DNA from: Escherichia coli
GTDB lineage: Bacteria; Pseudomonadota; Gammaproteobacteria; Enterobacterales; Enterobacteriaceae
Strand: one strand, 5' to 3'
Assembly: GCF_048403405.1 (NCBI RefSeq)
Contig: NZ_CP183129.1
Length of the DNA stretch: 64,000 bases
Shown here: positions 27,533-28,927 of the stretch, piece after piece
Numbering within the stretch: the first letter of the stretch is position 1
How the letters are laid out: the number at the start of each line of letters is the position of its first letter
The notes under the pieces: model-generated
The model's database searches: none
Seen by the model: only the letters and a program-made list of their open reading frames with translations
Told to the model about the DNA's origin: nothing
Program-made: the position numbers and the translations under genes

Positions 27533-28927
27533 TCAGAAGAAGTATTTAAAGCGAACGCGTGCCCCGTAACGGTCATCAGTATCATCACCGTGTTTTTTAT
27601 CACCGTCGCTATCCAGAATGGAGTAATACGTCCCGAGGTAAATATTAAAGTTCTCCATATCCATCACATTAGCGAACTGATAAGACGCATGAATGGTATG
27701 AATGGTGTACGTCCCTTCATCATCAATCCAGCAGTCGTTATCACAAACTACACCGCTGAATTCATCAATCTTATTGTGCGCGTAGATATAACCGAGCTCG
27801 AAACGTTTCCACAGCGCGTTAATCCCGGCAGTGAAATCTTTCTCATTATTAGCATCTAAATAGGCGGTATTAAGATTAACCACGACGCCATTTTCCGGAT
27901 CCGTTTTCAGGCCATTCCAGGTCATGCTCATACCATAGCCGGTACGATCGGACTGATCGACAAAATTACCCTTGCTATCGGTATAACCATAAGCATTATT
28001 TACCACGTTCGCTTCCATCGCTGCGGAAACGGTGAATTCTTCTGTCGGCGACCAGGCAATTACCGGACGCAGATAAGCAACATTTTTCTGCTGCTCCATA
28101 TCGCGTCCATGATAATTACCGTCATTATATAAAGATGTTCCGTCTTCAAGTAACGTGTTTAATTCAAAATACCAGTTATCGAGTTGTTTGCTGACGAGGA
28201 AATTACCGCCAGCGTTAGAGCGCCCGCGGCCCTCTTTCATCATATAGATATAACCGCTGCCATCGTCATAAAGATCGTTCGCAGTATTACCGGAATGTTC
28301 AACAAAGGTATCCTGATTCAGCGGGAACATATCATAGGCTTCGAAACGACCGACTTTGACCTTCCAGTCATTCTCTTTCCCAAAGAAGAATACCGCGTCA
28401 TCAATATTCACTGAACCGTGCATATCCCCCAGCGGTTGTGCGGAGAACCCGGCGAAATAACCATTATCCAGTTTTCGCATACCATCAAAACCTAACAGAA
28501 TACGACCATTGAGATTCCACTGTTCATTAGTGGGATCGCTATTCACATCAGCGTTGGTCATTGCCAGCAGGCCATGATTACTTTCTGCATCCATATTAAA
28601 TTCTACGTCGCCGTAGATTTTTAAATCGCCATAACCTGAGAGCAAAAGATTAGGTGAGGTGGAATTTTTCTTTGCAGATTCCGCCGTTGCCTGTCCATTT
28701 ACCGGCGTATTGCCCTGGGCAGCCTTAATTTCGCGGATCTCAGCGGCTTGTTGTGTCTGCAGCTGTTTAACCTGGCTCTCTGCTTTTGCTGCCCGCATTT
28801 CTGCCGCTTCCAGGCGTTCTTCCAGCAATGCCATGCGTTGTTCCAGCGTTAAATGCTGTGTTTTTGCCATTCCGGTACTACATGCCAATAATAAACCGAT
28901 GGCTAAAGATAATGTCGATTTTTTCAT
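27533..28927 (-). CDS. Outer-membrane carbohydrate-selective porin, LamB/ScrY/OprB-like, with N-terminal coiled-coil extension (464 aa)
   Basis: Signal peptide MKKSTLSLAIGLLLACSTGMA; heptad region LEQRMALLEERLEAAEMRAAKAESQVKQLQTQQAAEIREIKAA; aromatic/Gly/Asp-rich beta-barrel body ending ...RFKYFF (C-terminal Phe). Confidence 0.8.
   Translation of the reverse strand: MKKSTLSLAIGLLLACSTGMAKTQHLTLEQRMALLEERLEAAEMRAAKAESQVKQLQTQQAAEIREIKAAQGNTPVNGQATAESAKKNSTSPNLLLSGYGDLKIYGDVEFNMDAESNHGLLAMTNADVNSDPTNEQWNLNGRILLGFDGMRKLDNGYFAGFSAQPLGDMHGSVNIDDAVFFFGKENDWKVKVGRFEAYDMFPLNQDTFVEHSGNTANDLYDDGSGYIYMMKEGRGRSNAGGNFLVSKQLDNWYFELNTLLEDGTSLYNDGNYHGRDMEQQKNVAYLRPVIAWSPTEEFTVSAAMEANVVNNAYGYTDSKGNFVDQSDRTGYGMSMTWNGLKTDPENGVVVNLNTAYLDANNEKDFTAGINALWKRFELGYIYAHNKIDEFSGVVCDNDCWIDDEGTYTIHTIHASYQFANVMDMENFNIYLGTYYSILDSDGDKKHGDDTDDRYGARVRFKYFF

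Follow-up and report, generated by a model that had tools for sequence, protein, structure and literature searches.

A chromosomal RafY-family glycoporin gene beside rhaM in Escherichia coli, with a candidate CRP-like promoter of its own

The gene located between rhaM and frvA in the Escherichia coli strain analysed here is, quite probably, a chromosomal RafY-family glycoporin gene, which would be an old resident of the rhaM side with a predicted promoter of its own, and for which a coupling to frv is not supported. The first reading of this locus is corrected in that the gene is assigned to the RafY family and not to LamB/OprB, that its place beside rhaM appears ancestral, and that no tie to frv is supported.

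Results

Organization of the rhaM-frvA interval

The window used in this study is the whole stretch of 64,000 nucleotides that includes the rha and frv genes (features in Table 1). As claimed in the original prediction, which was made from the letters of the window, an extra gene parts rhaM from frvA, and the open reading frame of 464 amino acids, starting with ATG and ending in ...RFKYFF with Phe as the final residue, was confirmed on the minus strand. The predicted orientation, tail-to-tail with rhaM and divergent from frvA, was also borne out: the stop codons of rhaM (27492) and the porin gene (27533) face each other over a gap of 40 bp, and an AT-rich spacer of 476 bp (GC content 0.35-0.41) separates the porin gene from the ATG of frvA at 29404. 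The hairpin within the rhaM/porin gap showed folding energies of -21 kcal/mol on the plus strand (z -5.0) and -28.1 kcal/mol on the minus strand (z -6.4); it may work as a terminator, the U-tract being not clear. A search of positions 27400-29500 against Rfam gave 0 matches even at E<=1.

In K-12 MG1655, the porin gene is absent and rhaM and frvA are neighbours, as stated in the original prediction, at a distance of 300 bp versus 1911 bp in this strain. The blastn comparison of the K-12 junction with the window indicated that homology between the two haplotypes is lost immediately behind rhaM (27493), to be found again from 29269 onwards. The insertion of 1.9 kb proposed at first is refined to 1775 bp of this strain, in place of which K-12 has 164 unrelated bp, and this 164-bp segment gave no match above chance within the window. 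The B2 haplotype retains 28880-29259 and 29288-29386, the frvA-proximal upstream region being kept in B2 strains despite the deletion of frvABXR. Judging from these alignments, the porin/frvA spacer is composite, consisting of 341 bp on the porin side and 135 bp on the frv side, the latter being common to K-12.

Table 1. Positions of the porin gene, its neighbours and the associated elements within the window
Feature	Position	Strand	Description
RafY-family glycoporin gene	27533-28927	-	464 aa with the signal peptide; 'carbohydrate porin' in RefSeq (WP_000749944.1)
rhaM (L-rhamnose mutarotase)	27178-27492	+	Convergent neighbour of the porin gene, conserved across genera
frvABXR operon	29404-34120	+	Neighbour; membership in the system of the porin not supported by the evidence here
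GC-rich hairpin in rhaM/porin gap	27498-27526		Candidate bidirectional terminator or stabiliser
CRP-like site TGTTATATTCCTCACG	29089-29104	-	177 nt upstream of the start codon of the porin gene
Predicted sigma-70 promoter of porin	29042-29070	-	-35 TTTACT 29065-29070, 17-nt spacer, -10 TACTAT 29042-29047
Signal peptide codons	28865-28927	-	MKKSTLSLAIGLLLACSTGMA, residues 1-21; predicted to be cleaved after GMA
Periplasmic N-terminal coiled coil	28715-28852	-	Residues 26-71, six heptads
Beta-barrel body	27536-28618	-	Residues 104-464; predicted about 16 strands; C-terminal ...RFKYFF signal
Segment replaced in K-12	27494-29268		Porin gene and 341 bp of its own upstream DNA; by blastn
frvA-proximal upstream region	29269-29403	+	Common to K-12 (85.6% identity); frv side of the spacer

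Assignment to the RafY family

The protein matched the Pfam family Porin_8 (PF16966) with an E-value of 3.7e-154 (513.7 bits), covering model positions 1-372 of 372 with residues 104-464, and all 47 relatives collected matched the same model. Neither the LamB family (PF02264; none at E<=10) nor the OprB family (PF04966) gave a match, and NCBIfam yielded no family match, only a coiled-coil noise match of 12 bits. The porin was then compared with the raf-operon porin of an E. coli plasmid, which is encoded by the last gene after homologues of rafR-rafA-rafB-rafD and was taken as RafY from this operon context. Both proteins are 464 aa long, and over an alignment of 450 aa they are 79% identical, with 87% positives. 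By these matches the gene is a RafY-family (Porin_8) glycoporin gene and not a member of LamB/OprB; of the ScrY/LamB/OprB-like sugar porin first proposed, the sugar-type porin with a ScrY-like coiled coil stood, while the LamB/OprB assignment was replaced by Porin_8. Since searches of all PDB sequences with phmmer and with the family profile matched only coiled-coil proteins and no porin, no solved relative of the family is detectable by sequence.

The gene, an ordinary member of the RafY family, is already annotated and already noted as a rafY homologue, and a paper on O157:H7 names it rafY2. Our literature search found no experiment or study on this chromosomal rafY2 copy.

Domain structure of the porin

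The hallmarks of an outer-membrane beta-barrel protein are present: the chain starts with a signal peptide, contains strands of amphipathic character and ends in an aromatic residue. The N-terminus, MKKSTLSLAIGLLLACSTGMA/KTQ, reads as a signal peptide with the n/h/c layout and small residues at -3/-1, and aligns in position with the hydrophobic N-termini of 47/47 family members, cleavage being predicted after GMA. A reading as lipoprotein, based on Cys16 within a lipobox-like LLAC, was rejected, the Cys being found only in E. coli alleles: it is located at position 16 in the chromosomal E. coli copies and a few residues later in the plasmid RafY copies (EYNACAAKT), and the proteins of other genera carry ordinary SPase-I-type signal-peptide ends without it.

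Within residues 26-71, L, I, V, M or A occupies 11 of the 13 a/d positions of a 3-4 heptad pattern, a heptad score matched or exceeded by only 23 of 10000 shuffled sequences. The motif LEQRLxxLExRLxAAExRA of this coiled coil is conserved across the family, and an AF2 model places a helix at residues 28-70 with low confidence. The Pfam model Sugarporin_N (PF11471) matched 20 of the 47 family members at E<=0.001 (best 6.9e-07) and 46 of the 47 at E<=0.1, the match to the present sequence by itself being weak (E=0.06). The signal peptide, the ScrY-like N-terminal coiled coil and the terminal Phe, all predicted at first, were thus confirmed by reading of the sequence and by the heptad test. In the barrel, a long loop between predicted strands 5 and 6 (residues 193-241) is highly conserved; the AF2 model is moderately confident (mean pLDDT 62), and both the strand count and the assignment of this loop as constriction loop are provisional. 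The porin is presumably trimeric, and its pore properties are likewise presumptive.

Candidate promoter with a CRP-like site

The sequence TGTTA-N6-TCACG, with a variable spacer, was detected upstream of the porin gene in 13/13 loci of the rhaM region from 7 genera, and within the 64-kb window it was observed 2 times versus 0.16 expected. The site carries 2 mismatches to TGTGA-N6-TCACA. Because comparable matches arise commonly by chance, the case for the site is made by its cross-genus invariance alone, which suggests binding of CRP at this position. In 11 of the 13 loci, a TTTACN box is located exactly 18 nt past the CRP-like site and is followed by a TAnTAT-like hexamer. In the predicted geometry, the CRP-like site lies at about -61.5, transcription starts near 29034, and the 5'UTR has a length of about 107 nt, the folding of which was nothing unusual (z -0.46). 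A generic scan for sigma-70 promoters and terminators detected fewer promoter-like sites than in shuffled sequences, and missed the conserved candidate because this scores 8/12 matches. The porin gene is thus predicted to be driven by its own conserved CRP-like promoter, which is absent at the operon-internal plasmid copy of RafY. Transcription from such a promoter, dependent on cAMP-CRP and of class I, would lead to expression under carbon limitation.

Gene order in other genera

The porin gene is arranged convergently with rhaM in Citrobacter species, C. rodentium, Kluyvera, Klebsiella sp. B345, Pseudocitrobacter and Superficieibacter, and the two genes are 40-110 bp apart in the majority of the rha-linked loci that were compared (at least 6 genera). 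The amino acid identity of the porin between E. coli and Citrobacter is 85%, similar to that of RhaB, RhaD and RhaM (84-92%). The porin gene would have been inherited vertically, as a long resident of the variable region beside rhaM in Enterobacteriaceae. Because at least 5 other genera have it at the same place beside rhaM, loss in K-12, as supposed in the original prediction, is the likelier direction of change.

The position of rhaM as the most conserved neighbour might suggest that the porin serves the rhamnose locus, for example in the entry of rhamnose-containing oligosaccharides. Such a role is very improbable. The two genes converge on a strong hairpin, and are therefore not co-transcribed; other genes are inserted between them in a Pseudocitrobacter MAG (L014) and in RIT691 (L017); distant members of the family are linked to raf, GH32 or scr and not to rha; and K-12 grows on rhamnose although the porin is absent.

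The partners of the family elsewhere are raf, MFS-GH32 or scr genes, the arrangements including rafR-rafA-rafB-porin in Klebsiella B345, porin-rafR-rafA-rafB in Enterobacter ENT03, MFS-GH32-porin in Cedecea, Pseudescherichia and Escherichia sp. ESNIH1, and scrK-porin-scrA-scrB-scrR in Serratia. In the strain analysed here, no raf, GH32 or scr gene was found within 8 kb of the porin gene, and the chromosomes of porin-carrying E. coli are without rafA, rafB and rafD. The raf, MFS-GH32 or scr partners of the relatives being missing, the E. coli porin is an orphan. Such linkage is typical of the RafY family, but does not strictly define it.

Relationship with the frv operon

The porin and the Frv fructose-like PTS could be considered as two halves of one sugar uptake system, co-regulated from the shared spacer, of which K-12 keeps the inner-membrane half. 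The two are adjacent and divergent in this strain, in 1378 E. coli genomes and in Enterobacter sp. ENT03, and in Kluyvera and RIT691 one rha-fdhD region contains both; RafY-family porins also accompany a PTS in the scr regulon of Serratia and in a cluster of Enterobacter sp. BIGb0383. We nevertheless regard such coupling as improbable. Among the loci examined, E. coli and Enterobacter sp. ENT03 alone show the adjacency; the Citrobacter, Klebsiella B345, Pseudocitrobacter and Superficieibacter loci have no frv beside the porin gene. In Kluyvera and RIT691 the order is frvRXBA, azlD, azlC, a gene for an XRE-cupin regulator, porin and rhaM, and the adjacency in E. coli is, on this gene order, a secondary juxtaposition, because azlCD and the regulator gene, three unrelated genes, separate the two there. 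Loss of azlCD and the regulator gene would have brought the porin gene opposite frvA, and later the K-12-type haplotype would have lost the porin gene and the B2/Nissle-type haplotype frvABXR. The composite nature of the spacer also stands against such coupling, the 341 bp on the porin side travelling with the porin gene together with the CRP-like promoter, and our literature search found no paper that joins the porin and frv.

The distribution within E. coli points to the same direction. In a total of 5426 complete E. coli genomes (raw counts, in which kinship is ignored), 1378 carry both the porin gene and frv, 1166 have lost frvABXR by a clean deletion but keep an intact porin gene under constraint, and 2790 carry frv without the porin gene. 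Neither the co-occurrence, proposed at first as the test of an ancestral unit of porin and Frv, nor the conservation of adjacency held, and the claim of a single uptake locus is not supported. A narrower form of the proposal is that, in the quarter of E. coli that have both, the porin and the orphan Frv PTS take up a fructose- or mannose-type glycoside, mirroring the BIGb0383 cluster, in which genes for a fructose-type EIIA, EIIC, mannosylglycerate hydrolase and a PRD regulator stand together with that for the RafY-family porin; this we consider improbable as well.

Selection on the porin gene

The porin gene is found in about half of E. coli, the carriers including O157:H7, B2 strains (Nissle 1917 among them) and ST69 but not K-12. 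Its absence from the other half, its orphan state without rafA, rafB and rafD nearby, and the raf genes that flank the orthologous porin gene in Klebsiella B345 and Enterobacter ENT03 might be taken to indicate a silent leftover of a former chromosomal raf cluster, functionless in E. coli and in the course of being lost as in K-12. This is hardly probable, since the reading frame is intact in 2543 complete genomes and the upstream promoter elements are conserved. The in-frame deletion in the B2 allele takes out exactly one heptad, preserving the register of the coiled coil. The dN/dS ratio of the porin gene is 0.02-0.06 overall, about 0.05 against the chromosomal orthologues and 0.14 against the plasmid copy; between an frv-positive and an frv-deleted strain, in which the gene is intact, it is 0.038. 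Within E. coli the ratio remains at 0.017-0.038 despite dS of 0.28-0.42, indicating that the porin gene is under strong, long-term purifying selection.

Discussion

The chromosomal porin shares with RafY (plasmid rafRABD-Y of the pRSD2 type, TCDB 1.B.15) the layout of signal peptide, coiled coil and barrel, the terminal RFKYFF and the length of 464 aa, and diverges from it in the N-terminal region and the loops. In contrast to RafY, which is encoded in a plasmid operon, the gene described here is a single gene on the chromosome, without rafR, rafA, rafB and rafD. According to Andersen et al. (1998), RafY reportedly acts as a wide pore for general diffusion and has no site for sugar binding, and 'sugar-specific', by analogy, may be the wrong label for the porin described here. 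By analogy with the 79% identical plasmid RafY, its substrates are most likely di- to oligosaccharides. The protein would form a beta-barrel of about 16 strands in the outer membrane, with a long, highly conserved inner loop and a ScrY-type periplasmic coiled coil ahead, and through this channel raffinose, sucrose, melibiose-type alpha-galactosides, maltodextrins and similar sugars would diffuse when scarce. [quoted passage not shown]

ScrY and LamB likewise provide an outer-membrane route for oligosaccharides. The ScrY-type N-terminal coiled coil (Sugarporin_N) is present in both ScrY and the porin, and the slot of ScrY in the scr regulon of Serratia is filled by a RafY-family porin. DcaP of Acinetobacter baumannii (PDB 6eus) has only 10% sequence identity to the porin, belongs to another Pfam family and transports dicarboxylates and sulbactam, not sugars. 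In Klebsiella pneumoniae, another enterobacterium, the chromosome also encodes a RafY-family porin, GlyP. The glyP operon, with the LacI-type GlyR and the permease-hydrolase-porin order, resembles in arrangement the MFS-GH32-porin clusters of the distant relatives. The glyP gene is the last gene of an operon controlled by a repressor; its E. coli counterpart is monocistronic and has no repressor gene next to it. Derepressed GlyP is sufficient alone for a strong, conditional fitness advantage in carbohydrate competition (bioRxiv 10.64898/2026.03.29.715108).

The value of the present finding as a discovery is small, the gene being annotated in thousands of genomes. In many pathogenic and probiotic lineages, the outer membrane has a further wide channel, probably under catabolite control, which is absent from laboratory K-12, and this strain difference could affect the scavenging of oligosaccharides in the gut, the permeability to drugs, and the susceptibility to phages or colicins. 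One possible role of the porin is that of a wide 'scavenger' channel under CRP control, the lineage-specific presence of which would shape nutrient competition in the gut, and by analogy with what is reported for GlyP of Klebsiella, such a role possibly extends to the entry of antibiotics or phages.

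A RafY-family porin between rhaM and frvA

The reading frame described in the original prediction was confirmed in its position and length, as were the signal peptide, the N-terminal coiled coil and the terminal Phe of its product, and the gene indeed lies tail-to-tail with rhaM and divergent from frvA, across a spacer that is AT-rich (GC 0.35-0.41 vs about 0.55 in the flanking genes). The N-terminus, MKKSTLSLAIGLLLACSTGMA followed by KTQ, resembles an ordinary signal peptide. A regular 3-4 hydrophobic repeat runs through residues 26-71, with L/I/V/M/A at 11 of the 13 a/d positions, a count reached by 23 of 10000 shuffles. 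In the chromosomal E. coli alleles, Cys16 of the signal peptide (codons 13-16, window 28880-28891) forms a lipobox-like LLAC; it is absent from the orthologues of other genera, and in plasmid RafY a Cys occurs slightly further on (EYNACAAKT). Lipidation of the porin at Cys16 appears unlikely.

Features of the porin locus in window coordinates
Feature	Position	Strand	Remarks
Porin ORF	27533..28927	-	464 codons, ATG start, product ends ...RFKYFF
rhaM	end 27492		convergent with porin gene, gap 40 bp
GC-rich hairpin, strong	27498-27526		in rhaM-porin gap; z -5.0 and -6.4 on the two strands
frvA	start 29404		divergent from porin gene, spacer 476 bp
CRP-like site	29089-29104	-	TGTTA-N6-TCACG
TTTACN box	29065-29070	-	18 nt after CRP-like site
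TAnTAT-like hexamer	29042-29047	-	about 17 nt after TTTACN box

It is nearly certain that the gene product is a RafY-family porin. Pfam PF16966 (Porin_8, 'Porin-like glycoporin RafY') matched residues 104-464 over the whole model with E=3.7e-154, while the Pfam LamB and OprB models gave no match; the protein is thus no member of the LamB and OprB families to which it was originally likened. NCBIfam held no model for the protein, and no porin was found among PDB sequences searched with the porin sequence and a 47-member family profile. The proposed likeness to ScrY holds for the N-terminal extension, which is ScrY-like: the 47 aligned relatives all share the helix motif LEQRLxxLExRLxAAExRA, and Pfam Sugarporin_N (the ScrY-type periplasmic extension) scored E=0.06 on the window porin, E<=0.001 in 20 and E<=0.1 in 46 of the 47 relatives. 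The AlphaFold2 model, of moderate confidence (mean pLDDT 62, with most of the barrel blocks at 70-88), contains about 16 long strands. Between strands 5 and 6, residues 193-241 are long, poorly modelled and extremely conserved in the family alignment, and we infer that they occupy the site of the constriction loop of 16-stranded porins.

On an E. coli F-type plasmid, a porin of equal length and 79% identity is the terminal gene of a LacI-regulator, alpha-galactosidase, MFS, GH32 and porin cluster, which is the classical rafRABD-Y operon. Plasmid RafY differs from the chromosomal porin with dS 0.93 and dN/dS 0.14. For this operon (L004, 9003-16594) the dS of rafY compares with 1.88 for C. rodentium and saturation for other Citrobacter, while the Citrobacter proteins are 85% identical to the chromosomal porin. 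The lower dS, together with the higher protein divergence and dN/dS, hints that the plasmid operon acquired an Escherichia-lineage porin, which evolved faster afterwards.

The identical protein is present on at least 1000 public contigs as 'carbohydrate porin' or 'Porin'; strain TUM14771, identical to the window across the porin stretch, carries the former name in RefSeq. A comparative study of O157:H7 reported that rafRABD was absent, yet 'a rafY homolog annotated as rafY2' was present (PMC4809568). A literature search for experiments on the chromosomal copy found none.

Predicted promoter of the porin gene

The spacer is composite: 135 bp beside frvA are common to K-12 (85.6% identity), and 341 bp beside the porin gene are found only with the porin. 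Each of the 13 rha-region loci examined, drawn from seven genera, has the 16-mer TGTTA-N6-TCACG upstream of the porin gene, and so does Klebsiella B345 among them, with rafB as the immediate upstream neighbour; the half-sites are invariant and the spacer is variable. The site was located in the window (29042-29104, minus strand, with the downstream hexamers) and in loci L005, L008, L010, L013-L017, L019, L024 and L038 of the compared set, and was absent upstream of the operon-internal plasmid rafY. It differs from the CRP consensus TGTGA-N6-TCACA by one mismatch per half-site, and the window holds two exact copies of the pattern, where 0.16 would be expected. TTTACN follows exactly 18 nt downstream in 11 of the 13 loci. 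On this basis the CRP-like site would lie at -61.5, transcription would begin near 29034 and the leader would measure about 107 nt; together, these features predict a class-I CRP-dependent promoter.

Porin haplotypes in E. coli

The distribution was determined by four junction-specific searches of 5426 complete E. coli genomes, of which three haplotypes cover 5334. One search detected the porin at this site in 2543 genomes in total. The others found it contiguous with frvA in 1378 genomes and, after deletion of frvABXR, abutting a truncated yiiG in 1166 (B2 strains, among them O6:K2:H1 and Nissle 1917); the K-12 type, in which rhaM adjoins frvA without the porin, accounts for 2790. As raw counts, these do not support the co-occurrence with frv that the original prediction implies. 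An ST69 strain (phylogroup D) matches the window junction in its porin part only, and so seems to lack frvA too. The frv-deleted haplotype retains about 100 bp of sequence from upstream of frvA (29288-29386), which indicates derivation from a porin-plus-frv ancestor.

As had been proposed, the porin is absent from K-12 MG1655, where rhaM and frvA are 300 bp apart. Window and K-12 are homologous up to the rhaM stop (27493) and again from 29269, with 1775 bp here vs 164 unrelated bp in K-12. This K-12 segment (L002, 3195-3358, vs window 27494-29268) could not be related to the porin haplotype and carries its own hairpin and then a T-rich tract just after rhaM. The haplotypes are unusually deep (window 27533-29700 vs L002, L003 and L012): E. 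coli porin alleles differ by dS 0.28-0.42 and dN about 0.01, and between porin-type and K-12-type haplotypes identity is only 86-91% in the sequence upstream of frvA and in its 5' part, whereas at the protein level it is 97% for FrvX and rounds to 100% for FrvB. The yiiG-family gene downstream of frvR (window 34176-34818; L001, 14877-15519) is annotated as frameshifted and truncated in the strain identical to the window, and yiiG also contains one end of the frv deletion of B2 strains.

The porin gene is intact and evolves under constraint: comparison with the B2 allele, which lacks frv beside it, gives a dN/dS of 0.038, comparison with another allele from E. coli 0.017, and comparison with the orthologues of C. 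rodentium, Klebsiella and Kluyvera about 0.05. The B2 allele (L003, 8234-9607, O6:K2:H1; same junction in Nissle 1917) encodes 457 residues and lacks exactly the seven residues MALLEER, one coiled-coil heptad, with the register kept; the loss probably occurred by slippage between LEQR and LEER repeats. That the porin is a functionless relic is contradicted by both the purifying selection and this heptad-preserving deletion, and is highly improbable.

Another length polymorphism of the region is the rhaA-rhaD spacer (window 26160-26343 vs L002 1595-2044), about 185 bp here and about 450 bp in K-12. Rfam matches above gathering score were naRNA4 within this spacer (26217-26287, minus strand), the Hfq-binding sRNA STnc490 (19232-19355, minus), ES036 sRNA (11385-11426, plus) and a SECIS element of a formate dehydrogenase gene (36516-36574, plus).

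Synteny and partners in other genera

Enterobacteriaceae commonly carry relatives with 60-85% identity. The orthologue of Citrobacter spp. and C. rodentium (81-85%) occupies the same site, convergent with rhaM; its other flank is an XRE-cupin regulator gene and azlCD, and frv is absent. Since the identity of the porin between E. coli and Citrobacter (85%) is in line with that of RhaB, RhaD and RhaM (84-92%), the rhaM-adjacent position is judged ancestral and the K-12 state a loss, the latter as originally predicted. A rhamnose-linked role, for which this synteny with rhaM is the sole basis, is extremely unlikely.

Kluyvera genomosp. 1 and strain RIT691 share the order frvRXBA, azlD, azlC, XRE-cupin gene, porin. 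In Kluyvera the porin is immediately followed by rhaM, which in RIT691 comes some 8.6 kb later. Klebsiella sp. B345 has XRE-cupin gene, rafR, rafA, rafB, porin and rhaM, and Enterobacter sp. ENT03 has frvRXBA, a divergent porin, then rafR, rafA and rafB. At about 55% identity, remoter family members form the last gene of MFS-GH32-porin clusters in Cedecea, Pseudescherichia, Escherichia sp. ESNIH1 and Enterobacter ENT03. In Serratia grimesii (L028, 7836-14320), a RafY-family porin fills the slot of ScrY in a fructokinase, porin, sucrose EIIBC, sucrose-6-P hydrolase and repressor cluster (scrK-porin-scrA-scrB-scrR). In Enterobacter sp. BIGb0383 (L039, 2337-11142), fructose-type EIIA and EIIC, a mannosylglycerate-hydrolase homologue and a PRD/EIIA regulator are followed by a short porin without coiled coil and a ROK kinase.

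Judged by gene order, the recurrent functional partners of RafY-family porins are oligosaccharide operons, raf, GH32 or scr, and their recurrence in varying orders argues for selection on this linkage. A single uptake system formed by porin and Frv, the proposed ancestral state, would fit their adjacency in two lineages, with the PTS-linked members of S. grimesii and BIGb0383 as precedent; the haplotype counts and the synteny (Citrobacter without frv; azlCD and the XRE-cupin gene intervening in Kluyvera and RIT691) count against it, and we regard it as highly improbable. Most simply, porin-frvA adjacency in E. coli would have arisen when azlCD and the regulator gene were lost as a block, with no ancestral divergent operon pair.

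Proposed role

The gene is proposed to specify a RafY-type outer-membrane channel, and we consider the functional and evolutionary account as a whole quite probable. By analogy with ScrY and DcaP, a probably trimeric coiled coil would anchor the channel or extend it into the periplasm. [quoted passage not shown] Because of both, the channel is expected to be wide and weakly selective, and would pass oligosaccharides. The porin would be produced without glucose, feeding whichever inner-membrane sugar systems the strain has. It is a real, strain-variable gene, ordinary and already annotated; the proposed connection to Frv is unsupported, and the assignment of the porin is corrected from LamB/OprB to RafY.
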